Source: Actinomycetes bacterium (lineage in GTDB: Bacteria > Armatimonadota > SYMT01). From it: DNA of 64,000 nt. The translations under genes and the position numbers were made by a program. The notes beneath the pieces are model-generated. The model was not told where the DNA came from. It saw only the letters and a list, made by a program, of their open reading frames with translations, and did no database searches. Each line of letters begins with the position of its first letter. Within the stretch, counting starts at the first letter, position 1. The DNA is taken from NCBI GenBank assembly GCA_031426395.1, contig JANPLG010000124.1, positions 1,851 to 65,850 of the forward strand, read 5' to 3'. Positions 5,049 to 48,405 of the stretch are shown one piece after another.

Positions 5049-8000
5049 CTATTGAGCGAGGTGAAGCTTCTTCAGCAGCCCGTTGAGTGTCTCCCTTGCG
5101 GTGGGGCGGTCGCCGACGCGGAGGTATGCCGGCGGCTTGAACCCGAGTTCGGTGCGCTGGGGCACGTCCACGAGGAGGTCGACGATCTCCGAGACGGTGG
5201 GATAGATGGCCGTCTGGCCGAGGATGACGCTCTCCTGGATCAGGCCTCCCTTGGCTGCCTGCCGGGTGAAGTAACCGATGAGCGGGATGTCCTTCAGGAT
5301 GGGCAGGTTGCGGACGATCGGAACGCCGCCGGTGCGCTTCTCCGGAAGCCCCAACTGCGCGTTCACGCCGAAGCGGGAGACCTCGCGCACCTCCAGGTTG
5401 CTGACCTGCACCTCGGTGTTGACCGTGTGGCGGTCGACGCGCGGGATGGAGGGGTTCACCGTCCCATTCGGCTCCCGGACGTTCACTACGGCGGCGTAGT
5501 CGAACTTGAAGCGGAGAGCCTGGCCGGAGGGATCGAAGATGGGCGTCAGCTTGAAGGTGTTGCCACTGGTGAGGGCATAGACCTCACCCGGCGGCTCCTC
5601 CTTCTGTTCGTCCAGGAGGCTAAGTAGAGCCCCGATTCCCCCAAACAGCCCCAGCGAGGCACCACTGGCCCCCAGGGCACTCGCCGCTCCCGCCGCCGTC
5701 ATCCCGTTCTTGGCGGCATTGCTGCTCCGCTTGGGGGCGAAGAAGGAGTTGTTGACCGACTGGGCGATCTGCGCCAACTGCTGCGCCTGCTCCAGGAAGT
5801 CCTCGGGACCTTTGAGCGTCACATCTCCGCTGGCGTTGGGAGAGACGCGCGCCACCAGCCGGTTGGTGGCGAGGATGGAGGTCCGCTCAATCAGGCCGAA
5901 GTTGACCCGAGGCTTGGTCCCTCCTACCAGGCCCGCCAGCTTGTCCCCAATGCGTTCGCCTGTACTGGGCTTGTCATGGATCACGTCCTGGAGCGCCTTC
6001 AGCGCGGGAGAGACGAAGTAATGGTCAACGTCATCCTCGACAATGACCATGAGGCGCTTGACCATGTCGTCCGCCGCAGCAACGCGGGCGGTAGATTGCG
6101 TCAGGGAGTTCCGCTGCCCCTCCAGTGCCGCAATGGTCCAAGCCATCTGGTCTGCTGCCACAGGTTGCTTGAAGTTCATTTTGACGGCTTGCATTCCGAG
6201 GGCGCGATACGGCTGCGGCACATAGCATGCCCCGGCCTTTGCCTGATCATCCAGGTCCCGGAAGTCAGTGGGCGAGTCCACCAGGGACCGGGAGAGCCAT
6301 CCGAGGAGCGGCAGATACTGCTCACGCAACTGCCATACCAGGGGCGATCCCGGCTGGACTTGATCACCCGAGAGGCCCTGCGTGCGTTGGATCTGCCGCA
6401 GGATGCTTCTCACCTCCAGGCCGCAGGAGTGCCTCCCCTTTGCCTGGAGCGCCATGAGGACCTCCAGTTGGTTGGCGGTCATCTCGTCATCGTTGAGGTT
6501 TGACTCTCGCTTGTGGAGCGCACCGAATAAGGTTCTCGGTAGCGCTGGAAAGGTTGGGGATCCCGCTTGCTTGTTCGACGATGCATTCCCATTCGCCGCG
6601 CCAAGCAAAGAAACGGTGTCCTCTCCTGAAATCAGGACCCGGGCGACCGCGAGAGAATCGTGCAGGAATTGGTCGTAGCGTTCTCCTCGCCGCTTGGCAA
6701 GCTCTTGATCCCTGCCGTTCGAGTATTTGCCGGCGGCGGCATTCGCTTGGCGGCTCAGAGCGATGAGTTCCGTTGAAAAGTCCCGCAAGACCCGCAGCCG
6801 ACAGGATCTCCGGAGGAGGGAGGAGATGAACAGCGTCTGGCCGAGGGTGGTGGAGTTCGCGGGGTCAGGAATGGTCCAGCGGGTCACGGTTTCAAGGTCC
6901 AGTAGCTGAATTGCTAACTTCGACTTGTCGACTTCTTGCTTTTTGCGCTGCCTATAGACCTTTTCGAGCTTGTTGAGCCGGGACCCGAGGGCTGACGTGT
7001 CGCACACGCAATCAGGATCAATGCCCTTCGCGATCGAGTGCAGAATCCTCTGAAGTTCCTGCACGGACTCTTCACCCTTGCGAACCGCTGGCAGGACCGT
7101 ATCACCATAGAAATTGTCTAGCGTGTCCTTTTCTTTCGGGGGCGGGTCTCCGGGAACTAACTGCTTGAAACTGCGCTTCACCAATTTTCTAAGATTGTCT
7201 ACCAAAGTGGCCTTGTCTTGCTTGATGGCGAGCATCTCTGCCATTTCTTCTGCGAGCTTAGCCAAGGTCTTCAGTTCGCAGAGCGCGTCAGCCTTCCGCA
7301 ATTTCAGCGCCTGCCAGGTGAAGCCACCCGCGTCTTCGACATAGCACTTCTGAAGACCCTTCACGCGATCCATCCGGTGCGTGACTCGTCCCAGCGAAGC
7401 CTGAACTTCTCTAACCGCAGCTATCCCAAACTCCCCAACAAGGTTAAGCTCCTCAGCCAATCTATTGGATGGTCTAGGGTCGAGTCCTTGCTTCTTTCGA
7501 AGCGCCCTAAGCTCCATGAATCGTTCCACATAGCCCCGGAGCGCCTTCAAGTCAGCGGAAAGGCGAAGCGTCTGCGCCGCAGTGGAGTGCCACTCGGAGT
7601 AGGGGAGCTGAAGGCCCAGCCGTTCCCGTACCTCGCGGGGATAGGCCATGTAGCGACAGAGGCGCTGGTCCATATCCAGCGGCGTACCCTGGATGAGGCT
7701 CTTGAACCCAATGGCGACGGAATTCACCTCCTGGTTGACGGAGTTGCGCAGCACGTCCTGGATGCCGATGATGTTGGCGCGCAGGTAGCGCATCTCTTCA
7801 TTGATCAGGCGCACGCTGCCGTTCAGTTGGGCGGGGTCGCGGCCATTCAGTTGCAGGGTCCAGAGGGTGACCCGCGCCTGCGGCGCGGGACGGTCGAACC
7901 CGGCGACCACGTCCAGCGCGGTTTCCACGTCGGCGGGATTGCCCCGGAGGAAGAGCGTCTTGCTGTCTCCGTAGGCGAAGAACATGACCCGGCCCAGCGG

Positions 8001-10229
8001 GTCGTTGCTGCCGGCGCGGGCCGGGGCGAAGTAGATGGGCAGGTTGTCCGAGGCTTCCCCGAAGGCCTCCGCTTCTGCCCGCGCCTGGAGGACCAGTTGC
8101 TGGCGCAGCTCGAAGACGGCTTGCTGCGCTTGCCGGAGCTGGGGCATGGCACCGAGCGCCTCCGCCTCAGTGTTGTTCAGTTGCCGGTTGACCTCATCCC
8201 GCCGGGTCTGCGCGGAACGCATCTTCTCCTCGGCGCGGCCTACGGCGGCGCGTTGGTCGTCGGTGAGCGACTTGGCGAAAGCCGCATCAGCGGTTGCCGG
8301 CGGGACCGCGTTCTGGAGCGCCATGAGCTCGCCCTTGAGCTTCTCGACCTTCGCCGTCTTCTCATCGATGACGGGCTGGGGCATCATCGCCGCGATCGCA
8401 TCCGCCAACTCCTTCTCGGCGGCGGTGAGTTCCTGCTGCTTGACGGTTACGGCGTTGTCCGACTTCGCCTTGTTGAGGTCCGCCAGGGCCTGCTTCGATA
8501 CCAGGTCGCTGAGGATCTTGTTGGCGTCCGTTACCGCCTGCTGCTCGGCGGCGAGCTTCTTGTCCGCGACCTCGAGTTCGGTCTGGAGGATGATGACCTG
8601 CCGCTTCAGGTCGGCGACAGCTCCGTCCCTGGCGAACGCCTCCTGCTCCTTCTTCAGCAATTCAGACTGGAGCGTCCGGGCGCGGTCGACGAAGGCACGG
8701 CCCTCCGGATTGAGGATCGTCACCTCGTTGCGCCGCAGGGACTGAAGGAGGCGGGGCACGTTGGTGAAGTAGAAGAGGCGCACCTGCTCGTTCACAAACC
8801 CCTCGGCGTCTCCCGTGTAGGTCTCGTCCAGGCCAACGAGAGCGGCGGAGAGGATGTCGCGCCCCACGCGGGCTCCGACCACGCTCTCCCCGGCGGCCTT
8901 CATCGCGGCGTCGTTCACTTCGCGGAGCTGCGCCGCGAGGGTGGGCCAAGCGGTGTCGGCCTGATTGATCAGGGTGACCAGCCCCCGGCCCAGGGTCATG
9001 CGGGTCTCATCGGGGACGGGGAGGGCCCGGTCATCATCACCTTCCCGCGCCCTGGCAAGTCCCTCCCGGAGTGCCCGCGTGTACTTGAGCAGCTCGCCGG
9101 TCTCGACGTCGCAGGCGGTCCGGACCGCGTCATACAGCCCACGGAAACCTTCGATGCAGCGCTGGGTCTTCTGGCCATGCTCCCGCACTCCGGCGCAAAG
9201 CTTGTCATCCCGCTTCGCGCCGTGCATCTCCGTTGCCTCGACGTAGTCCGGCGGCTCGAGTCCCTCGACTAGCAGGCCTGACCCAGGCTCATCCAGCTTG
9301 TCCGACTGACGGATGGGCGCCAGGGCTTTCACCAGTGATCGGTTGAGGATCTCCGCGCGACCAAAGGCAACGAGTTGGCCAGCCAGCGCATCGGCGGCTG
9401 CCAGCCCCGTAGGCTTGCCGCTGGTCAGCTTGGGGAACTGGGTGGCATCAAGTTGGGAACCGAGACCGGAGGAGAGCTTGTTGCCATAGCCCGTGAACGC
9501 CTTGACCGCCTTGAAGAGCAGGCCCTTCTCCCCCTCCGTGCCGCGCAGTTTCTTCGCGTCCTCGATGCCTGCCTTGAGCTCGGTCAGTAGCGCCTGCGCC
9601 TCGTCAATGGGATCCTGCTTCTTCTTGAGAGCGGCCGCAGCATCCGACTTCGCCTTATCCGCAGCAGCAGCGGCGGCAGTGGCGGTATCGAGCGCCTTCT
9701 GCGCTTCGTCGATCTCGGCCTGTGGTGCCATCTTCTCTTTGAGCTGCTTCAGCTTCTCCTGCGCCGCCAGCAGCTCTTTCTTCTTGGTTTCCTGCGCCGT
9801 GGTCTTGTCCGCGAGGTCCTTGCGCAACTGCACGATCTCGGTGGAGGTGTCAGCCGCCTTGAGCGCTTCATCAAGGCACTTGGAATCGGTCTCGGCCTTC
9901 GGCTCTGTCAATGGCTTGAGCTTGGAATCAAGGCCACCGTTTCCGCCAATGGGGTGCGCCTTCCAGAGCTTGGCCCCCTCCGCGAGGCGAGCGATGCTGG
10001 TGCTGGAAAGCTCCGGGTCGGCGGGAAGCCCCAGCGCCGGCAGTAGCTTCTTCGCGTTCGCCAGCGGGGTTCTTGTCTCGCCGAGAAGCTTCTTCGCGTC
10101 GGTGACGGCTGCCGGGAGGTCCGTACAGGGCTTGTCAGCAGCCATGCCGCCAGTCACATAGGAGAGGGAGAGGAGACTGGTAACCAAGATGAACAGGGAG
10201 CAGAAGGCTCTTCGACTAGGGTGCCACAT
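5049..10229 (-). CDS. Giant (1726 aa) secreted protein with a Secretin_N-like module, extensive coiled coils and a C-terminal secretin pore domain
   Basis: N-terminal signal peptide (MWHPSRRAFCSLFILVTSLLSLSYVTGGMAA). Mid-protein block ...RVMFFAYGDSKTLFLRGNPADVETALDVVAGFDRPAPQARVTLWTLQLN... resembles Secretin_N ring modules. C-terminal ~250 aa (...FKLTPIFDPSG..., VDRHTVNTEVQVSNLE..., GGVPIVRNLPILKDIPLIGYFTRQ..., ESVILGQTAIYPTV) follows the secretin (GspD/PilQ/pIV) domain pattern, including the VPLLGDIPLLGxLF signature. Most of the remainder is heptad-like, K/E/A/Q-rich helix. Confidence 0.75.
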   Translation of the reverse strand: MWHPSRRAFCSLFILVTSLLSLSYVTGGMAADKPCTDLPAAVTDAKKLLGETRTPLANAKKLLPALGLPADPELSSTSIARLAEGAKLWKAHPIGGNGGLDSKLKPLTEPKAETDSKCLDEALKAADTSTEIVQLRKDLADKTTAQETKKKELLAAQEKLKQLKEKMAPQAEIDEAQKALDTATAAAAAADKAKSDAAAALKKKQDPIDEAQALLTELKAGIEDAKKLRGTEGEKGLLFKAVKAFTGYGNKLSSGLGSQLDATQFPKLTSGKPTGLAAADALAGQLVAFGRAEILNRSLVKALAPIRQSDKLDEPGSGLLVEGLEPPDYVEATEMHGAKRDDKLCAGVREHGQKTQRCIEGFRGLYDAVRTACDVETGELLKYTRALREGLARAREGDDDRALPVPDETRMTLGRGLVTLINQADTAWPTLAAQLREVNDAAMKAAGESVVGARVGRDILSAALVGLDETYTGDAEGFVNEQVRLFYFTNVPRLLQSLRRNEVTILNPEGRAFVDRARTLQSELLKKEQEAFARDGAVADLKRQVIILQTELEVADKKLAAEQQAVTDANKILSDLVSKQALADLNKAKSDNAVTVKQQELTAAEKELADAIAAMMPQPVIDEKTAKVEKLKGELMALQNAVPPATADAAFAKSLTDDQRAAVGRAEEKMRSAQTRRDEVNRQLNNTEAEALGAMPQLRQAQQAVFELRQQLVLQARAEAEAFGEASDNLPIYFAPARAGSNDPLGRVMFFAYGDSKTLFLRGNPADVETALDVVAGFDRPAPQARVTLWTLQLNGRDPAQLNGSVRLINEEMRYLRANIIGIQDVLRNSVNQEVNSVAIGFKSLIQGTPLDMDQRLCRYMAYPREVRERLGLQLPYSEWHSTAAQTLRLSADLKALRGYVERFMELRALRKKQGLDPRPSNRLAEELNLVGEFGIAAVREVQASLGRVTHRMDRVKGLQKCYVEDAGGFTWQALKLRKADALCELKTLAKLAEEMAEMLAIKQDKATLVDNLRKLVKRSFKQLVPGDPPPKEKDTLDNFYGDTVLPAVRKGEESVQELQRILHSIAKGIDPDCVCDTSALGSRLNKLEKVYRQRKKQEVDKSKLAIQLLDLETVTRWTIPDPANSTTLGQTLFISSLLRRSCRLRVLRDFSTELIALSRQANAAAGKYSNGRDQELAKRRGERYDQFLHDSLAVARVLISGEDTVSLLGAANGNASSNKQAGSPTFPALPRTLFGALHKRESNLNDDEMTANQLEVLMALQAKGRHSCGLEVRSILRQIQRTQGLSGDQVQPGSPLVWQLREQYLPLLGWLSRSLVDSPTDFRDLDDQAKAGACYVPQPYRALGMQAVKMNFKQPVAADQMAWTIAALEGQRNSLTQSTARVAAADDMVKRLMVIVEDDVDHYFVSPALKALQDVIHDKPSTGERIGDKLAGLVGGTKPRVNFGLIERTSILATNRLVARVSPNASGDVTLKGPEDFLEQAQQLAQIAQSVNNSFFAPKRSSNAAKNGMTAAGAASALGASGASLGLFGGIGALLSLLDEQKEEPPGEVYALTSGNTFKLTPIFDPSGQALRFKFDYAAVVNVREPNGTVNPSIPRVDRHTVNTEVQVSNLEVREVSRFGVNAQLGLPEKRTGGVPIVRNLPILKDIPLIGYFTRQAAKGGLIQESVILGQTAIYPTVSEIVDLLVDVPQRTELGFKPPAYLRVGDRPTARETLNGLLKKLHLAQ

Positions 10230-10981: not shown

Positions 10982-12139
10982 ATGCTTCTTCGCCATCTGA
11001 CCTTGCGGCATTACCGGAACTACGTGGAGCTTCGCCAGGAGTTCTCACCCAGCCTAAACGTGGTGGTGGGTCCCAACGCCCAGGGCAAGACGAACCTGCT
11101 GGAGTCGGTCTACCTGCTGGCTACCAGCAAGTCGATGAAGGGCAGCAAGGACGCGGACCTGATTGAGTGGGACACGCCGGCCGCGCTGGTTTCCGCGGAC
11201 GTGCTGCGGGAGAAGGCGAACGACATCGAGCTGGAAGTCTCCCTCTCTCGGACGGAGAAGAAGACGCTGGTGGTGAACACGGTCCATGTGCCTCGTGCCA
11301 TGGAGTTCATCGGGCAGCTCAAGGCGGTGGCCTTCAGCGTCAGCGACCTGGAGGTGGTGCGGGGCGAGCCGCTGCGCCGCCGCCGGTTCCTCGACCTGGA
11401 GGTCTCCCAGCTTAGCCCCAGCTACGTCCATACGCTGGCGTGCTACCGCAAGGTGGTGGAGCAGCGGAGCAAGCTCCTGAAGCAGGCGCGCGACCGCAGC
11501 ATGCGTCCGATCATCGAGGAGACGCTGGGGGTCTGGACCGACCAGATGATTGTCTATGGCAGCAAGCTGATGGACAGGCGGCGGCAGTTCCTGGAGAAGC
11601 TGGAGGCGTTCGCCCAGCCAATCCACTCCCTGATGACGGATGCCCAGGAGCGGCTCACGGTCTCCTACCATCCCAGCTTCCGGGCACCGGAGAACCCGGA
11701 GAAGGTGCCGGACGCCTATCGCGAGGCGCTCTCCCATGTGCGGGAAGAGGAGTTCCGCCGGCAGGTCTGCCTGGTGGGTCCCCACCGGGACGACGTGACC
11801 TTCCTGATCAATGGCCGGGACGCGCGCACCTACGGCAGCCAGGGCCAGCAGCGTACGGCAGCCCTGAGCGTGAAGCTGGCCGAGGTGGAGCTGATGCGGG
11901 ATCTCACGGGAGAAGCCCCGGTCTGCCTTCTGGACGATGTCTTCAGCGAGCTGGACAGCCGCCGCCGTGGCCACATCTTCGACGTGACCCTGGGCGCGTG
12001 CCAGACCTTCCTCTCCACCACGGATGTGGAACTCCTCCCGCTGGAGGTGCGGAAGCAGGCGACGCTCTTCCATGCGCGGCAGGGAAGCCTGAGGAGAGAG
12101 GGAGAGAGGGAGAGAGGGAGAGAGGGGGCGACGCGGTGA
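10982..12139 (+). CDS. recF: DNA replication and repair protein RecF, with a C-terminal simple-repeat-encoded tail
   Basis: MLLRHLTLRHYRNY start, Walker A GPNAQGKTNLLE, C-terminal LLDDVFSELD signature. The last ~20 codons (RREGEREREGATR) are encoded by a (GAGAGGGA)n array. Confidence 0.9.
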   Translation: MLLRHLTLRHYRNYVELRQEFSPSLNVVVGPNAQGKTNLLESVYLLATSKSMKGSKDADLIEWDTPAALVSADVLREKANDIELEVSLSRTEKKTLVVNTVHVPRAMEFIGQLKAVAFSVSDLEVVRGEPLRRRRFLDLEVSQLSPSYVHTLACYRKVVEQRSKLLKQARDRSMRPIIEETLGVWTDQMIVYGSKLMDRRRQFLEKLEAFAQPIHSLMTDAQERLTVSYHPSFRAPENPEKVPDAYREALSHVREEEFRRQVCLVGPHRDDVTFLINGRDARTYGSQGQQRTAALSVKLAEVELMRDLTGEAPVCLLDDVFSELDSRRRGHIFDVTLGACQTFLSTTDVELLPLEVRKQATLFHARQGSLRREGERERGREGATR

Positions 12140-12623
12140 ACCGTTTCCGCTGCGTTTGTCGGGTTGTAGCCTCCATCCAAAGCTTCGTGCGCTCGACACC
12201 TTACAATCGATTGGCGAACGGTGTATGAGCCATCCGCCGCAATTGACTGCGGCGCGAGGTCGCTGGCTCTGTGTTTGGGGATGTTTGGGGGCGGAAGCTA
12301 ACCGGAGGGCATAGCCAGCAGCCTTGCGCTGCGTTCGATCACGGTAGCCGCATCGGGTACCTCATGCCCCCTTGGGCTGGGTGTTCTGCCAGGCGGCTTC
12401 CGCAACCGAAAGTCGCGGTGTCCGTGGGGGTGTGCGGGACACCAAGCCACCACCGTGATCGAATGCGGCGCGAGGCCGCTGATCTCCGGCCGGAGCGGTG
12501 ATGCGGGTCGGCTTTGCTTTGCAAAGTGATTGAACTTCGCAAAGACGAGATGCAACCAACCTGAACGGTGCTCCGCGCATTCCAGATTGCTGGAACCCCT
12601 GCATTACGGAGACCCGCGAAAGG

Positions 12624-13598
12624 ATGAGCCGTGAGATGGAAACTCCCTCCCCCCAGCCCGCGCTTGGTGAGTTCGCCCTTGATCCGTCCCCGAACGGGGG
12701 CATGCGTGAACCCGTAGCCGCAGCGGTAGCCGTACCAGCCCCGTCGCCAGCCACAACGATCTCGCCGCGTTCGCATCACTCCGGCTATACCGCGTCGGCA
12801 CTCTTGTCGCCTTCCGTCAACCCTCTCGGCGGAACAGCGCCCCGCGCGTCTCACGCGATCCGCCCGGAGGAAGACGAAGACGTGGATCCGCCCACGGAGC
12901 GGGGACGCGGATTCCTTGGGCGGCTCTCTATCGCGGAGTGGCTGCTGAAATACCGCGGCTACCTGCTCCGGCAGATCGAGAGTGGGCGGGAGCTGGAGGT
13001 CATCCTGATCGACCTCCTCATCGTGGCCGCCCTGCCGACCGCTTTCTACGGCCTGGTGACGGGAATGGCGACCGGCTCCTGGGCGCGGATGCTGACCAAT
13101 CCGTTCAAGCTGCCGGTGCTGCTGGTTCTCACCACGGTCCTCTGCCTGCCCACCCTCTACATCTTCCTCTCCTACCTGGGCAGCCGGCGGTCGTTCCCAC
13201 AGATCACCGCCCTGGCGTTCACCGGCATCGCCATTGTGGGCATCATCCTCGCCGCCTTCGCGCCAATCACATGGTTCCTTACCTTCACGGCACCCGGAGC
13301 GTATGCGCTGCACGTCGTCGTAAACGTTGCCGTGCTCGCGCTGGCGGGGTGCATGGGTGTCCGCTTCCTCTTCCACGGAGTCCGCCGAGTCCTCGGCAAC
13401 CAGCCCGGGGCTGGGAAGCAGATGACCTTCATGACGGCGTGGATGGCGATGTACGGACTGGTCGGCGCGCAGATGGGATGGATGCTGCGCCCCTTCTTCA
13501 GCCCCACCACCGAACTCTTCCGCGCCCCGGAATCCGGCGGTGAGACCGTCTTCGCCGCCATCGCCTCCCTGGTGTGGCAGCTCGTGGGCGGACGCTGA
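12624..13598 (+). CDS. Polytopic membrane protein of unknown family (paralog 1) with a disordered Pro/Ala-rich N-terminus
   Basis: About 5 predicted TM helices. C-terminal half aligns with the next ORF (GAQMGWMLRPFF / AAQQMAWIFRPHF; APESGGETVFAAIASLV / HPLASGGTALQRLWDLI). Confidence 0.5.
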   Translation: MSREMETPSPQPALGEFALDPSPNGGMREPVAAAVAVPAPSPATTISPRSHHSGYTASALLSPSVNPLGGTAPRASHAIRPEEDEDVDPPTERGRGFLGRLSIAEWLLKYRGYLLRQIESGRELEVILIDLLIVAALPTAFYGLVTGMATGSWARMLTNPFKLPVLLVLTTVLCLPTLYIFLSYLGSRRSFPQITALAFTGIAIVGIILAAFAPITWFLTFTAPGAYALHVVVNVAVLALAGCMGVRFLFHGVRRVLGNQPGAGKQMTFMTAWMAMYGLVGAQMGWMLRPFFSPTTELFRAPESGGETVFAAIASLVWQLVGGR

Positions 13599-13657
13599 TT
13601 GAGCACCCTGCCACCCCACCTGAACCCGAAACAGGAAACAGGGAACTGGAGACCCGA

Positions 13658-14311
13658 ATGCTCCCCATCAACGTCTTCCACCACCGTGAAGAGCTGCTGA
13701 AGGCGCTTCGTGGTGGAGTGGGCCTGCGCTCGCTCATCCGGCGGATGGGCGTCGGCTCGTTCCTCTGCGCCACGGGCTATGGGCTGGTGCTGGGCGCGCA
13801 GGTGGGCGGCTGGCAGGTGCTCTCCAGTCCCGTGAAGCTCTGCCTGGTGCTGCTCGGGACCACCGGCCTCTGCGTCGCGGCCCTCTACGTCATGCTGGCC
13901 CTCGCTGGGCAGCGGCTGGGGTGGGGGCAGGTGGTGGGGCTGGCGCTCTGCTCCGTCTCTGCCAGCGCGCTCTGCATGGCGGCTCTGCTCCCGATCACCG
14001 CCTTCTGGGCCCTGGCCAATTCCAGCCCGGACCGCGCCCCATTGGTGCTCGCGCACGCCACCGCCTTCGGCATCGCGGGGTGGGTCGGCACCCGCTTCGG
14101 GATGGAGATGGCGCGCGCGCTCTTTCCCGTTCCACGAGCCATCCATGTCTTCACCCTCTGGCTCTGGCTCTTCGGCCTGGCGGCGCAGCAGATGGCGTGG
14201 ATCTTCCGTCCCCACTTCCACGCCACCACCACCTTCATGCATCCCCTGGCCTCCGGCGGCACCGCCCTGCAGCGCCTCTGGGACCTCATCACCGGCACGC
14301 TCTTCCGCTGA
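13658..14311 (+). CDS. Polytopic membrane protein of unknown family (paralog 2)
   Basis: Tandem paralog of 12624-13598. Start chosen at MLPINVF with a GGAG RBS about 8 nt upstream; the ORF track gives 13574 as the earliest start. Confidence 0.5.
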   Translation: MLPINVFHHREELLKALRGGVGLRSLIRRMGVGSFLCATGYGLVLGAQVGGWQVLSSPVKLCLVLLGTTGLCVAALYVMLALAGQRLGWGQVVGLALCSVSASALCMAALLPITAFWALANSSPDRAPLVLAHATAFGIAGWVGTRFGMEMARALFPVPRAIHVFTLWLWLFGLAAQQMAWIFRPHFHATTTFMHPLASGGTALQRLWDLITGTLFR

Positions 14312-14406
14312 GGTACGGCGGGACATCGCCGATCGGCGGTAGGAGGTCGCTCGTTTATTGTGGAACCCAGTAAGCCTCAGACCGCTGAAAGACAGGGACC
14401 GCAAAC

Positions 14407-15135
14407 ATGGGCAAACCGTTTACGGATGAAGACTGGAACACGTTACTTGGACACATAGGGTATGGCAACCCGAGGGGCGCTCTCTGGTTCCTGGGGATGG
14501 AGGAAGCTCTTGGAGGTGATCGAGACGCCAACCTACGATGGCGTCTCGATCACTTCGCGCATCCAGTTGATACGCTCACCAACCACATGAAGGCACCTTG
14601 GATAGGCGGTACGGTTCCGCGAACGCCCACCTGGCGCATCATGGCAAAAATTGCGCGACTACTTGAGGGAGCGAATGATTGGGCTGCTCCCGAAGCGGCA
14701 GCCACCTATGTCCGGCGCAAGCCGGGTACAGCAACGGGATCGACATTCCTCATGGAGATGCTGCCCTTGCCGAACAAGAGCCTCAAAGACTGGTCACACC
14801 ATGATCGCTTTCCCGGCGGGCGACTCCATTACGAACGCGACCACCTGACCCAACGGATCGAACAGCTTCGCGAGTTCGTGAATGAGTACCAGCCCCGTTG
14901 CATCATCTGCTACGGGAAGGGATTCTGGCCGAGGTACCATCAGGTTATGCCCTTGACTGATGTGCGGAGCATCCAGTTGCCGGAGACAACGGTAACCATC
15001 GGGAGGTGGAACACGACCACTGTGCTGCACACCCCGTTCTTCGTACCGTACGCGTTTCCAGAGCGTGCGATTGCCGCAATCCCTGGCCTACTTCGTGAGT
15101 ACGCGTGCGACGATACGAAGAGCGCGACCCGGTGA
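14407..15135 (+). CDS. Hypothetical protein in a low-GC islet, with weak resemblance to the uracil-DNA glycosylase superfamily
   Basis: GC drops visibly (~55%) versus flanks. N-terminal GYGNPRGALWFLGMEEALGGD loosely resembles the family-4 UDG GEGNP...FVGEAPG..ED motif, and a VLHTPFF block resembles the C-terminal HPSP motif. No confident family. Confidence 0.35.
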   Translation: MGKPFTDEDWNTLLGHIGYGNPRGALWFLGMEEALGGDRDANLRWRLDHFAHPVDTLTNHMKAPWIGGTVPRTPTWRIMAKIARLLEGANDWAAPEAAATYVRRKPGTATGSTFLMEMLPLPNKSLKDWSHHDRFPGGRLHYERDHLTQRIEQLREFVNEYQPRCIICYGKGFWPRYHQVMPLTDVRSIQLPETTVTIGRWNTTTVLHTPFFVPYAFPERAIAAIPGLLREYACDDTKSATR

Positions 15136-15240: not shown

Positions 15241-15267
15241 GTAGGGCACGCTCGCCGCAGCGTGCCG
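15241..15267. repeat. REP-like palindromic element GTAGGGCACGCTCGCCGCAGCGTGCCG (single copy)
   Basis: Same 27-mer as in the 24299-24630 cluster. Stem GGCACGCT/AGCGTGCC with a 6-nt loop. Confidence 0.7.
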
Positions 15268-15544
15268 TCGTTCTCGTCACGCGTGAATCCCCCGCTTGGC
15301 CGATGTCTCCATCGCGGACGGATCGGAAGTGTGGAATCCGACGGCTCGACGGGCATGACACGCTTCCTAACGGTCGCGGTTCCGGTCTGCGGCTCTATGA
15401 CGGGAGGGCGGCAGTATGATTCAGTGGCAGGCCGTCAATGTAGATTTGGAACACAGCGTCCGTGAATCTGTTCGCTCGGCCAGGGTCCAGAGCCGTCCCC
15501 GCCGGCCGACTGCCCAATGCCCAATGCCTAAGACCCGAGGTTGA

Positions 15545-15590
15545 AGAGTAGGATTAGGATTAGGATTAGGATTAGGATTAGGAGCAGGCT
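15545..15590. repeat. (AGGATT)6 tandem hexamer array
   Basis: gtaggattaggattaggattaggattaggattaggagc. Same unit as the TAGGAT hairpin elements at 17516, 18297 and 48344. Confidence 0.85.
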
Positions 15591-16555: not shown

Positions 16556-17398
16556 ATGCAGCAGGTGAACCGAACGGCACGACGCAGCGCGGGACCGATG
16601 GGCGTGGCGCTCTGGAAATGGGCGCTGCTGCCGCTCATCATGGGCGTCATCTGCATGGCCTACCTCTGGGCGGGCAACCTGCAGAACTTCATGTCGCCTG
16701 AGACGGCGCGGATCATCTTCTGGCACGTGCCGATGGCGATGGTCTCCCTGGTCTGGTTCGCGGCCTCCGCCTGGTACTCCGTCCGCTATCTGCGGCGGGG
16801 CCAGCCGTTCGATGACGACCGCGCCGCCATCGCCGCCGAGATCGGCCTGATGACCACGGTCCTGGCCACCCTGACGGGGGCGATCTTCTCCAAGATGCAG
16901 TGGGCGGGCGGCCTTAACAGCAAGTGGTACGAAGGCTACTGGCAATGGGACCCCAAGCAGACCGCCATCCTGGTGGTGATCCTCATCTTCGGCGCCTACT
17001 TCGGCCTGCGGATGTCGGTGGAGGACACGGAGCGGCGGGCGCGGCTCTCCGCAGTCTACTCCGTGCTGGGCGCGCTGACCGTCCCGCTGCTCTACTGGGT
17101 GCTGCCCCACCTGCCGATCTTCGCCAGCCTCCACCCCACGGACACCATCAAGCAGGGGATGGACACGCCCTACCGGGTCACCTTCTGGACCTCCACCCTG
17201 TTCTTCACCGGCATCACGCTCTGGGCTTACCAGCTCAAGCTGCGCGTGGCGGAACTGAGCCTCCGCCGGATGCTCAGTGGCGCGGCAACTGGAGCGGGCT
17301 CCGCGCCCACCGTGGCGGTGAGGCGGCCACGACCGGAAGTTGCCACTCACCGGGCGGCTGTCAAAGAGCAAGCCGCCATTCAGCAAGGAGAACGGTAA
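16556..17398 (+). CDS. ccmC: Heme exporter protein CcmC
   Basis: WWD-domain motif KWYEGYWQWDPKQTAILVV and conserved His-containing TM helices. The start could instead be MGVALWKW at 16598. Confidence 0.85.
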   Translation: MQQVNRTARRSAGPMGVALWKWALLPLIMGVICMAYLWAGNLQNFMSPETARIIFWHVPMAMVSLVWFAASAWYSVRYLRRGQPFDDDRAAIAAEIGLMTTVLATLTGAIFSKMQWAGGLNSKWYEGYWQWDPKQTAILVVILIFGAYFGLRMSVEDTERRARLSAVYSVLGALTVPLLYWVLPHLPIFASLHPTDTIKQGMDTPYRVTFWTSTLFFTGITLWAYQLKLRVAELSLRRMLSGAATGAGSAPTVAVRRPRPEVATHRAAVKEQAAIQQGER

Positions 17399-17515: not shown

Positions 17516-17647
17516 CCAAGTTCCTAATCTTACTCTTAATCCTAATCCTACTCCCAAGCCTCTCGAACCGTTCCCGCCTACCGACAAGCGGAACGAGCTT
17601 CCAGGGCTTCTTGGAGTAGGATTAAGAGTAAGAGTAGGATTAGGATC
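17516..17647. repeat. MITE-like hairpin element of the AAGTTCCTAATC...(TAGGAT/TAAGAG)n family, copy A
   Basis: Arms built of cctaatc/ttactc hexamers in inverted arrangement around a conserved core ctcccaagcc.ctcg...cccgcctaccg.caag.gga.c.agcttccagg.cttct. AT-rich relative to the genome. Confidence 0.8.
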
Positions 17648-18296: not shown

Positions 18297-18426
18297 AAGT
18301 TCCTAATCTTAATCCTACTCCTAATCTTACTCCCAAGCCCTTCGTGGCGATCCCGCCTACCGGCAAGTGGATCAAGCTTCCAGGACTTCTCTGAGTAAGA
18401 TTAGGAGTAAGAGCAGGATTAGGAAT
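18297..18426. repeat. MITE-like hairpin element of the AAGTTCCTAATC...(TAGGAT/TAAGAG)n family, copy B
   Basis: Begins 5 nt after the ccmE stop. Same core and arm architecture as 17516-17647. Confidence 0.8.
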
Positions 18427-24298: not shown

Positions 24299-24630
24299 GT
24301 AGGGCACGCTCGCCGCAGCGTGCCGCTGTTCCCGCCGACCGTCACATTCTTCGCGAAGCGGACGCCGCGTTCGTGGCCGACGGGCCGGAGCGGCGTCCGG
24401 CCCCTACTCGCACGCTCGCGGTATCGGCCGTACCCCTGTAGGGCACGCTCGCCGCAGCGTGCCGCCGTCCCCGCCAACCGTCACATTCTTCGCGAAGCGG
24501 ACGCCGCCTTCGTTGAGGACGGGCCGGAACGGCGTCGACGCGGGACCGTCAGCGACAGAAGCGGCACCGGCTTCGCGGGGACGGCATCGGGTGGCGGGAG
24601 CGGCGGAACGCTGCAGCGAGCGTGCCCTAC
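24299..24630. repeat. Cluster of REP-like palindromic elements: two direct ~140-bp units, each starting with GTAGGGCACGCTCGCCGCAGCGTGCC, plus one inverted copy
   Basis: Copies at 24299-24325 and 24438-24463, and an inverted copy at 24606-24630. Each direct unit also contains ccgtcacattcttcgcgaagcggacgccgc. Confidence 0.8.
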
Positions 24631-48343: not shown

Positions 48344-48405
48344 CAACTTCCTAATCCTAATCTTAATCCTACTCCGTGCAACCGAGCGGGGTTGCAGGCA
48401 CGGAT
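48344..48405. repeat. Truncated member of the AAGTTCCTAATC...(TAGGAT)n element family, with a short hairpin
   Basis: aacttcctaatcctaatcttaatcctactcc followed by gtgcaaccgagcggggttgcaggcac. Confidence 0.65.

Follow-up and report, generated by a model that had tools for sequence, protein, structure and literature searches.

The window analysed here, a stretch of 64,000 nucleotides with a GC content of 65.6%, carries two adjacent genes for membrane proteins, designated A and B, and beside them a low-GC orphan gene and several repeat elements. The features are given below by position in the window, with strand and basis.

12316-12481, no strand assigned: long imperfect inverted repeat with 56-nt arms and a 54-nt spacer, within the 484-nt recF-A spacer (repeat search)
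12624-13598, plus strand: gene A, encoding a 324-aa five-TM membrane protein (ORF list)
12663-12683, plus strand: short N-terminal motif of A, L14-G-E-F-A-L-D20 (listing of ortholog N-termini P0032-P0070)
12924-13595, plus strand: five-TM core of A, the region it shares by homology with B (BLASTP of A against B and joint alignment A2)
13658-14311, plus strand: gene B, whose product is a paralog of A with 217 aa and five TM helices (same coordinates as P0001 of NCBI)
14335-14351, plus strand: terminator-like hairpin followed by a T-rich tail (consensus scan and sequence reading; a pattern match only)
14407-15135, plus strand: low-GC orphan gene of 242 aa with a predicted UDG-superfamily fold lacking known catalytic motifs, outside the A/B module
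15245-15266, plus strand: REP-like perfect hairpin GGCACGCT-CGCCGC-AGCGTGCC, a dispersed repeat in the window
15549-15583, plus strand: (AGGATT)n hexamer array (TRF: period 6, 5.8 copies, 100% matches)

The start of gene A is placed at 12624 in Logan (324 aa) and 12 nt later, at ATG 12636, by NCBI (320 aa, P0032). Upstream lies recF (TIGR00611, E=5e-100), in agreement with the original prediction that the genes follow it, and gene B starts 59 nt past the A stop codon, with a GGAG 8 nt 5' of its ATG. BLASTP aligns A and B with 30% identity over 219 columns (E=4e-25), and the motifs previously cited for the two proteins, GAQMGWMLRPFF / AAQQMAWIFRPHF, align between them. By sequence comparison A and B are true paralogs, as had been claimed for 12624-13598 and 13658-14311, whose coordinates proved correct. 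The core of A runs from an amphipathic helix, AEWLLKYRGYLL, through TM1-TM5 to an RPFF tail; in the ortholog alignment the conserved core comprises aa 101-324 and the N-terminal tail is variable, with 43 ortholog clusters for A and a match of the joint A2 profile to A at E=3.5e-96. The composition of both genes is native, with GC3 of 82% in A and 90% in B; recF, A, B and the ccmB-like and ccmC-like genes together span 65-70% GC and 82-91% GC3. The hairpin at 14335-14351 starts 24 nt after the B stop and, judged as a sequence pattern, likely marks the end of an A-B transcription unit. We propose that A and B constitute a two-gene operon.

Scans with Pfam, NCBIfam and PADLOC assigned no family to A, B or gene 14407-15135 (Pfam and PADLOC at E<=1), and membership of an anti-phage defence system is not supported by this PADLOC result. 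NCBIfam scans of 35 and of 10 A/B relatives likewise gave no match, a PDB sequence-profile search with the A/B family gave none, and the family has no structural neighbour in PDB or BFVD. A confident match to a characterised transporter family, which by the original prediction would have made these proteins ordinary, did not emerge from the HMM searches (Pfam, NCBIfam; MFS, ABC-2 etc.), from the sequence-profile search of PDB or from Foldseek on PDB structures. A profile built from A and B retrieves 3,132 cluster representatives at E<=1e-3, of which 1,947 remain at E<=1e-10, distributed over Planctomycetota, Verrucomicrobiota, Armatimonadota, Myxococcota and Bacteroidota. The description of the proteins as an unknown family stands in that no curated family exists, but must allow for the very large size of the family and for its consistent, though sub-threshold, link to Yip1.

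Pairing of the two genes in other genomes, proposed earlier as a check, is conserved: two full-length copies lie in tandem on the same strand in 76 of 84 loci (window included), with a median of 22 nt from the A stop to the start of the B domain. In all three close-ortholog contigs examined A precedes B, and the flanking genes differ. This two-paralog operon structure is very consistent across the family. No other neighbour is conserved: among the 83 public loci clustered, gene families other than that of the pair reach 15 loci at most. Synteny in these loci is lineage-specific only, involving HEAT-repeat giants (15 loci), HTH_34 regulators (6 loci), xseA/xseB and hydroxyproline-type catabolic genes. 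Cultivable strains carrying the operon include Limnoglobus roseus, Paludisphaera soli and Hyalangium versicolor. Two apparent A-B gene fusions were considered as evidence of contact and set aside: residues 170-320 of P0094 resemble an out-of-frame translation, probably a frameshift artefact, and P0189, with a Met at the expected B start, may be an artefactual fusion.

The AlphaFold2 model of B (pLDDT 93.2, pTM 0.88) has five long helices at residues 23-49, 53-82, 89-120 (kinked), 127-155 and 159-182, with additional short helices at the N- and C-terminal ends, which bears out the earlier count of about five TM helices per protein. The long disordered Pro/Ala N-terminus ascribed to A is also real, covering approximately aa 1-95 (roughly 100 aa) and varying in length and sequence among orthologs. 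In many A orthologs the variable Pro-rich linker is preceded, close to the extreme N-terminus, by the pattern [LIV]-x-[DE]-F-x-[LIVMF]-[DE], exemplified by MEQSLNDFSVE, MERSLHDFALD, METHLQDFAFN and MSDFILDPF; this motif may serve as a docking peptide to which a cytoplasmic partner binds. Counts of K+R over 76 pairs are 11.0 inside versus 5.7 outside for A and 7.8 versus 5.7 for B, a bias of the same sign that places the N-terminus inside for both subunits. Some family members carry N-terminal zinc ribbons, which fits a cytoplasmic N-terminus. With 3.3-3.6 K+R residues in the C-terminal tail, the membrane side of this tail is uncertain.

On the shared orientation, an antiparallel dual-topology heterodimer, considered because tandem paralogs with an odd TM count invite the idea, is rejected. 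SMR pairs of the YdgE/YdgF type and Fluc/CrcB pairs are similar in that two genes in tandem encode small polytopic membrane proteins, paralogous to each other and odd in their number of TM helices; they differ in that opposite K+R bias defines the partners there, whereas A and B are both N-in, and they have no sequence similarity to A/B.

Residues conserved family-wide are, in B numbering, Y41, G42, G46, Q53, K60, P62, P112, F116, Q178, W181, R184 and P185, and the family motifs are K-x-P at the start of TM2 and VGxQMxWxLRPF at the end of TM5. Helix boundaries combined with the positive-inside rule would put the conserved residues in the outer-leaflet half of TM1, TM2, TM3 and TM5. This placement, together with the polar set Y41, Q53, K60, Q178 and R184, suggests a putative polar, cationic binding site that opens to the periplasm or the outer leaflet. 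The cytoplasmic parts, namely the N-tail and the TM4-5 loop, are lineage-variable, with Pro-rich inserts or zinc ribbons.

Pfam Yip1 (PF04893) is the sole Pfam family matched repeatedly, with sub-threshold matches in 6 of 58 members and, in a larger set, 13 of 149, at a best E of 1.4e-4; any other family appears in at most 3 members. P0071 scores 13.4 bits against the Yip1 model, and one alignment is collinear, pairing residues 14-152 with model positions 11-150 of 173. The gathering score of 28.6 bits is reached by no member, the A and B proteins of the window have no Yip1 match even at E<=1, and an hhalign comparison of the family profile with E. coli YohC, which belongs to DUF1282 in the Yip1 clan, gives a probability of 0.5%, a negative result that carries no information since YohC is one distant sequence. 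Sequence similarity at this sub-threshold level suggests a distant resemblance of the A/B family to the eukaryotic Yip1/Yif1 membrane proteins.

The layout of A and B points the same way, since AlphaFold2 helices, K+R bias and zinc-ribbon N-termini together give the five TM segments and cytoplasmic N-terminal region of Yip1 proteins. Eukaryotic YIPF proteins have five TM segments, a cytoplasmic N-terminus and specific alpha/beta paralog pairs (PMC6682643). The Yip1 family (PF04893, clan CL0112; YIPF alpha/beta corresponding to Yip1p/Yif1p) shares with A/B the five TM helices, an N-terminal region of variable length in the cytoplasm, a short C-terminal stretch that in A/B would lie across the membrane, polar residues within the TM segments, and paralog pairs, alpha/beta in YIPF and tandem genes in A/B, where the pair is known from the genes. 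It differs in that the K-x-P and VGxQMxWxLRPF motifs are peculiar to A/B and that the bacterial pairs are encoded as an operon. The A/B duplication and the split of Yip1 from Yif1 in eukaryotes are very probably separate events. To our knowledge, Rab/Ypt GTPases and vesicle traffic are absent from bacteria carrying A/B, and no conserved GTPase gene adjoins the pair among the 83 public loci clustered.

Bacterial Yip1-type proteins offer a second comparison. YknW of the B. subtilis SDP-efflux system and the "Yip1 family proteins" reported from bacteriocin gene clusters resemble A and B in being small polytopic membrane proteins without an enzymatic motif; both are of the Yip1 type, are regarded as likely accessory or adaptor subunits in the membrane, and are single genes inside ABC-transporter or, reportedly, bacteriocin operons. 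YknW is listed among the four components of the YknWXYZ transporter (PMC4887032). A/B differs in comprising two paralogs with no transporter, bacteriocin or other conserved neighbour.

The reading we favour, with a probability of about 55%, is that the products of the A/B operon form a parallel hetero-oligomeric inner-membrane complex of Yip1-like architecture, acting as a receptor/adaptor or small conduit. On the genomic evidence, A and B would associate physically in parallel, each subunit running from a cytoplasmic N-terminus with an amphipathic helix through five TM segments to a short conserved tail (R-P-x-F...) that would lie on the periplasmic side, and A would add a long disordered Pro-rich cytoplasmic tail bearing the short N-terminal motif. 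The combination of an outer-leaflet polar site with lineage-variable cytoplasmic parts is the ground for proposing a non-enzymatic receptor/adaptor or conduit. The module would bind a putative ligand, an anionic lipid head-group or a peptide, at its outer face, and this binding may be coupled to cytoplasmic partners recruited by the tails. The analogy would be with the eukaryotic Yip1/Yif1 (YIPF alpha/beta) pairs and with bacterial Yip1-type accessory subunits such as YknW.

A bolder form of the Yip1 link, which we consider unlikely, holds that A and B are true ancient relatives of Yip1/Yif1, a prokaryotic two-subunit YIPF-like complex revealing an original, traffic-independent activity of the Yip1 fold. 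Such a complex would be over-represented in the PVC group (Planctomycetota, Verrucomicrobiota) and in Armatimonadota, and its activity could be that of an outer-leaflet receptor or conduit whose cytoplasmic tails recruit partners. What YIPF proteins do in the membrane is still an open question (PMC6682643). If the Yip1 link is true, the operon provides a simple bacterial system in which to ask what a Yip1-type five-helix pair does in the membrane, and if the ancient-relative reading holds, its simple, self-contained form in cultivable strains makes YIPF molecular function directly testable.

The foremost competitor of the receptor/adaptor complex, and a tentative one, is that A and B together make up a transporter, a channel or a lipid flippase, with K60, Q53, Q178, R184 and Y41 lining a path along which a small anionic solute or lipid-linked head-group is translocated and the tails only regulating it. 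One Lys and one Gln are invariant at or within membrane-embedded helices across 149 diverse members, the ten TM helices of an A/B dimer would suffice for a conduit, and a pair that needs no conserved neighbour may be self-sufficient; a review of YIPF proteins moreover takes hydrophilic TM residues to suggest channel, transporter or receptor roles for the Yip1 clan, prokaryotic members included (PMC6682643). The lack of likeness to transporter families in Pfam/NCBIfam or to solved PDB structures weighs against this reading, as do the absence of an internal inverted repeat, the same rather than opposite orientation of A and B, and the absence of conserved substrate-related genes nearby in the 83 public loci. 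The conserved residues, moreover, judging by helix positions, would be grouped in one leaflet and not along a full path.

Whether A and B associate at all bears on a further alternative, an improbable one in our estimate, in which each forms independent homo-oligomers and their adjacency is mere tandem duplication. Chondrinema litorale has a single-copy member, one copy was detected in at least three contigs (L022, L080, L085), and an A-A'-B triplet exists, so pairing is not strictly obligatory. In neighbour-joining trees of a reduced sequence set, the main-family A-type and B-type sequences form separate clades (bootstrap 0.93 and 0.79); the main-family mean identities are 0.52 for A-A, 0.48 for B-B and 0.32 for A-B; these separate clades and the higher within-type identity indicate paralogs kept distinct, as expected for non-interchangeable subunits and against independent homo-oligomers. 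Armatimonadota-type A and B cluster together (bootstrap 0.91), apart from the main-family clades, a grouping by which the duplication may have occurred more than once, independently in different bacterial lineages. Repeated duplication suits the homo-oligomer reading, but independent duplications fixed repeatedly would themselves indicate selection for a two-subunit assembly, and those 76 of 84 loci, drawn from four phyla or more, have kept the gene order, the strand and the very short spacers.

Automatic annotation has suggested yet another identity, through the names "Actin-binding WH2 domain-containing protein" and "actin-binding protein", which UniProt applies to the two Limnoglobus roseus proteins and NCBI applies to a single MAG protein from Armatimonadota. 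The WH2 pattern is LLxxIxxGxxLKKV, and in A and B a Gly comes after the N-terminal amphipathic helix (B: LLKALRGGVGLRSL; A: LLRQIESGRELEVI), which gives a loose resemblance to this pattern. That A and B are membrane-anchored actin-binding (WH2) proteins, perhaps tethering a bacterial actin homolog to the membrane, is rejected as very improbable: the HMM evidence is negative, with no Pfam WH2 match at E<=10 in ten members, both UniProt-named L. roseus proteins included, or at E<=0.1 in 149 members, the current RefSeq name is hypothetical protein, no literature on such a bacterial family was found, and the segment runs straight into TM1 in the AlphaFold2 model, which would put the LKKV equivalent at or in the membrane. 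A family of thousands in several bacterial phyla thus has no curated model, and either no name or this misleading one; defining it would do away with numerous "hypothetical protein" entries and put right an automatic annotation that is open to doubt. Its immediate value lies in classification and hypothesis-building.

The gene at 14407-15135 differs from its neighbours in composition. The claim of markedly lower GC is confirmed, with GC of 58.0% and GC3 of 65.8% against 65-70% and 82-91% in the surrounding genes, and only 7 homolog clusters were found. Its product has no match to Pfam UDG (PF03167) or any other Pfam family at E<=1 and nothing better than E=0.22 in a PDB sequence search. The faint resemblance to the UDG superfamily noted earlier is borne out at the level of the fold: the top 47 Foldseek PDB matches of the AlphaFold2 model (pLDDT 81) all belong to this superfamily (TDG, MUG, family 4 UDG, UdgX and one family-1-type UNG), with E=1.9e-5 to 0.04, TM 0.35-0.55 and a probability at or near 1.0 for the best approximately 30. 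Matches to TDG, MUG, family 4 UDG and UdgX at E=1.9e-5 to 1e-3 have a probability of 1.0, with TM-scores no higher than the range 0.4-0.55. The product is accordingly modelled, on predicted structure, with the UDG alpha/beta/alpha fold.

The catalytic signature of the superfamily is a different matter. Motif A of UDG families reads GQDPY, GINPG, GMNPG, GE[AC]PG or GLAPA, and motif B has a conserved His or Asn. In the alignment of the 7 homologs, motif A of the known families is absent and W-F-x-G-x-E-E-x-L is invariant at that position, and the conserved His of motif B is absent, P-x-F standing there. Motif A has G-M-E-E instead of GQDPY, GINPG or GEAPG, and motif B has T/S-P-F-F instead of H-P-S. 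Near the N-terminus, GYGNPxAPLWFLGMEE occupies the place that GExxxxAxxMxVGEAPG takes in family 4. Only C168 is invariant among the 7 homologs, which excludes the 4Fe-4S site built from four Cys ligands in families 4/5/6 and UdgX. The gene encodes an independent protein of predicted UDG fold, was probably acquired horizontally and, as an orphan without canonical catalytic motifs, is a separate small lead to a new branch of the superfamily.

The implied grouping of the three genes as a unit did not hold. Homologs of the third gene adjoin A/B homologs in none of the contigs examined, and a terminator-like hairpin separates B from 14407-15135, so the trio is a duo plus a bystander. It is barely credible, and already largely refuted, that A, B and the UDG-like gene are one horizontally acquired cassette bounded by repeats: the genes are adjacent on one strand, repeats lie on both sides and the third gene is low in GC, but A and B have native composition, the third gene does not accompany the pair elsewhere, the hairpin intervenes, and the hairpin and hexamer repeats are dispersed elsewhere in the window.

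Of the claim that repeats bound the three genes, the presence of the repeats is confirmed (12234/12450, 12316-12481, 15245-15266 and 15549-15583); their role as boundaries is undercut by the recurrence of the 15245 hairpin and the AGGATT arrays. In the recF-A spacer, a 32-nt direct repeat occupies 12234-12265 and 12450-12481, its second copy overlapping the inverted repeat, and the RNA fold of 12225-12490 has an energy of -143.8 kcal/mol (z=-4.5). The core of this repeat is confined to this spot in the window. Neither Rfam nor tRNA scans detected anything in the window, and no Rfam family matches the spacer repeat. The element at 12316-12481 could represent either a structured 5' leader or a repeat element of small size, with at most a putative connection to the pair. 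The hairpin at 15245-15266 recurs unchanged at 24303 and 24442 and, with one mismatch, at 24605, giving five matches in the window against 0.9 expected by chance. The (AGGATT)n repeat forms five arrays in the window, the others lying at 17526, 17630, 18299 and 48347.

The central finding is a large, uncurated, paired family of Yip1-like membrane proteins, represented in the window by genes A and B, and its value would grow with confirmation of the heteromer and of homology to Yip1. The original observation holds; of its interpretation, the conserved pair stands, and the trio as a unit does not. The locus is laid out as follows:

10982-12139: recF (TIGR00611, E=5e-100), upstream of A
12624-13598, + strand: gene A, ORF of 324 aa
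13658-14311, + strand: gene B, ORF of 217 aa
14407-15135, + strand: gene 3, ORF of 242 aa
15628-16407: CcmB-like gene, cytochrome-c-maturation-like, downstream of gene 3
16556-17398: CcmC-like gene, cytochrome-c-maturation-like, downstream of the CcmB-like gene

The NCBI annotation of the source contig (67,758 bp) gives the same coordinates for B and gene 3, and places the start of A 12 nt later. B begins 59 nt past the stop of A and is preceded by GGAG, while a terminator-like hairpin with a T-rich tail lies 24 nt past the stop of B. Given this short, GGAG-containing gap and the hairpin, A and B look like a single operon and gene 3 like a separate unit.

A and B are clear paralogs, as the original prediction had stated, with 30% identity over 219 columns (E=4e-25). 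For B, an AlphaFold2 model derived from a joint alignment of the two paralog families reached a pLDDT of 93.2 and a pTM of 0.88. It exhibits a short N-terminal helix (residues 10-19), five long helices (23-49, 53-82, 89-120, which is kinked, 127-155, and 159-182), and a conserved 20-residue coil starting R-P-x-F, followed by a C-terminal helix (203-215). A carries an additional N-terminal region of ~100 residues in three parts: a short motif, [LIV]x[DE]Fx[LIVMF][DE], near the very N-terminus (LGEFALD in the window, 12663-12683); a Pro/Ala-rich linker of 20-80 residues, freely variable between orthologs; and a conserved basic stretch, PRGRGFxGRLxxAEWLLK, leading into TM1. The motif on its variable linker looks like a tethered docking peptide. 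The N-termini of Armatimonadota-type A proteins (homologs P0032-P0063) share the short motif followed by a hypervariable Pro-rich linker.

Lysine and arginine counts over 76 aligned pairs place the N-terminus, loop 2-3, and loop 4-5 of both proteins on the positive, cytoplasmic side, with 11.0 residues versus 5.7 on the other side in A and 7.8 versus 5.7 in B. The bias has the same sign in both, so both subunits are assigned an N-in topology and the same orientation, which excludes an antiparallel dual-topology pair. Across 58-149 diverse members, the invariant or near-invariant residues (B numbering) are Y41, G42, G46, Q53, K60, P62, T68, P74, L76, P112, F116, W168, V175, G176, Q178, W181, R184, and P185. 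Taken with the N-in orientation, the helix boundaries lead us to infer that most of the conserved residues occupy the outer-leaflet half or the periplasmic face, and every conserved polar residue (Y41, Q53, K60, Q178, and R184) would fall on that side.

Word-seeded searches recovered just ~30-45 close ortholog clusters, without a name save one "actin-binding protein"; where taxonomy is given, which is seldom, the source is an Armatimonadota MAG. An exhaustive search with a profile of both paralogs returned 3,132 cluster representatives at E<=1e-3, of which 1,947 also pass E<=1e-10. A one-genome-per-species scan confirmed 166 loci, and among the best 80 of these Planctomycetota form the majority, accompanied by Verrucomicrobiota, Armatimonadota (Fimbriimonadaceae, Abditibacteriaceae, Chthonomonadales, and "Hebobacteria"), and Myxococcota; isolates among the same 80 include Limnoglobus roseus, Paludisphaera soli, and Hyalangium versicolor. 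A Bacteroidota member resides on a plasmid of Chondrinema litorale.

Pairing was counted by hmmsearch of six-frame ORFs with the A2 profile, derived from the joint alignment of A and B paralogs, over 84 non-redundant loci (the window and 83 public). Two full-length same-strand copies occur in 76 of the 84, with a median of 22 nt from the first stop to the second domain start, and the pairing is strongly conserved in other genomes. The order A then B is kept in all three contigs with close orthologs, where the flanking genes are wholly different, and at least 15 A/B ortholog pairs are implied to share a contig by the equal lengths of the contigs that carry them. Exceptions include a single detected copy in at least three contigs (loci L022, L080, and L085), one copy followed by a small HTH gene on the C. 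litorale plasmid (L095, 4989-5810), an A-A'-B triplet in L096 (6001-8459), and three copies in L058 (4032-6657). In a neighbour-joining tree, a simple distance method open to long-branch artefacts, the main family resolves into distinct A-type and B-type clades (bootstrap 0.93 and 0.79), and the Armatimonadota-type A and B proteins, the window's group, cluster together (0.91). The latter clustering fits either an independent duplication in the lineage or concerted evolution; whichever applies, the two-paralog state is fixed and retained.

Clustering of 848 neighbouring ORFs from the 83 public loci yielded no family beyond the pair itself in more than 15 loci. The recurrent neighbours reflect lineage-level synteny, namely HEAT-repeat giants in Isosphaeraceae, an HTH_34 regulator with an unknown gene in Tepidisphaerales, xseA/xseB, and DHDPS, proline racemase, and DAO. 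The HTH_34 winged-helix regulator lies upstream of the pair on the same strand (median gap 54 bp) in L025, L041, L058, L069, L082, and L084, which are Tepidisphaerales/Phycisphaerae-type loci plus one from Isosphaeraceae (L025). In five of the six, a 207-251-aa gene without a Pfam match precedes the regulator, and the unknown gene, HTH_34, and the pair may constitute a lineage-specific four-gene operon.

The pair had been described as belonging to no placeable family. The family indeed has no match among Pfam, NCBIfam, or PADLOC models, PDB sequences, or PDB folds, and its RefSeq label is hypothetical; the description falls short in that the family is large and shows recurrent sub-threshold similarity to Yip1 (PF04893). 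Yip1 is the sole recurrent Pfam family among relatives, matching 6 of 58 and 13 of 149 members (best E=1.4e-4), whereas any other Pfam family matches at most 3. The one alignment examined is long and collinear, pairing residues 14-152 with model positions 11-150 of 173. Yip1-family proteins span the membrane five times with the N-terminus in the cytoplasm, and the eukaryotic ones work in specific alpha/beta pairings of paralogs, Yip1p/Yif1p among them; prokaryotic relatives such as DUF1282 have no reported function (PMC6682643). The A/B family has the same architecture, and its Yip1 matches all score below the 28.6-bit cut-off. We accordingly regard its kinship with the Yip1 clan as remote and probable, and its membership as not demonstrated.

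With a probability of roughly 0.55, A and B would assemble in parallel as an inner-membrane hetero-oligomer serving as an adaptor or receptor module of Yip1-like architecture. Its conserved polar, cationic site would face the periplasm or outer leaflet, and its cytoplasmic tails, which differ between lineages, would bring in partners, A doing so through the N-terminal motif on its flexible Pro-rich tether. The main rival, which we regard as doubtful, reads the same complex as a transporter or flippase; channel, transporter, and receptor roles have all been suggested for the Yip1 family (PMC6682643). Independent homo-oligomers of A and B are improbable.

A three-gene island joining gene 3 to the pair, as originally implied with repeats as its borders, is very improbable. 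The low GC of gene 3 was correctly noted (58%; GC3 66%, versus 82% in A and 90% in B, which match the neighbourhood), yet its homologs form only 7 clusters, none with an A/B pair nearby, and the hairpin after B separates it from the pair. Its suspected resemblance to uracil-DNA glycosylases (UDG) survives at the fold level: the AF2 model (pLDDT 81) retrieved exclusively UDG-superfamily structures as top Foldseek matches (E=1.9e-5, TM 0.4-0.55), comprising TDG, MUG, family 4 UDG, UdgX, and one family-1-type UNG. It fails at the level of Pfam UDG models, which give no match, and of motifs, since the invariant residues, including G18, G20, P22, W27, F28, G30, E32, E33, C168, Y169, G170, P210, and F212, reproduce neither the two motifs (A and B) nor the Fe-S ligands known from any UDG family described so far. 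An invariant G-x-E-E (GMEE in the window) replaces the usual catalytic loop. With its foreign composition and UDG fold, gene 3 is an orphan and, to the membrane pair, a bystander; it may represent an undescribed branch of the superfamily.

The supposed borders downstream of gene 3 recur elsewhere in the window:

15245-15266, 24303-24324, 24442-24463, and 24605-24626: REP-like perfect hairpin GGCACGCT-CGCCGC-AGCGTGCC, three identical copies and one near copy
15544-15585, 17526-17561, 17630-17647, 18299-18328, and 48347-48376: hexamer arrays of (AGGATT)n and its complement, intergenic

Three of the four hairpin copies fall within ~320 bp, around 24.3-24.6 kb. The AGGATT arrays are AT-rich in 65.6% GC sequence, with none expected by chance, and two oppositely oriented sites flank the ccmB/ccmC-like genes. 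Hairpin and arrays are dispersed repeats within the window, not mobile-element borders. The recF-A spacer (12225-12490) carries two repeats, one inverted (56-nt arms, 75% complementary) and one direct (32 nt, at 12234 and 12450), and its RNA fold is very stable (-143.8 kcal/mol, z=-4.5). It has no Rfam match, its core sequence is found nowhere else in the window, and it may serve as a structured leader or else be a small non-autonomous element.

Actin binding by the A/B proteins is very improbable, the label lacking WH2 HMM support. Both proteins of the L. roseus pair (L046, NZ_CP042425.1 5220-6627) bear the UniProt name "Actin-binding WH2 domain-containing protein", and NCBI lists a single MAG protein (P0044) as "actin-binding protein". 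The WH2 label is probably a propagated annotation artefact, with its probable origin in the amphipathic N-terminal helix and the Gly after it. Upstream of recF, an ORF on the - strand (5049-10229, 1,726 aa), rich in Ala, Lys, Glu, and Leu and with a signal-peptide-like start, may encode a long coiled-coil protein.
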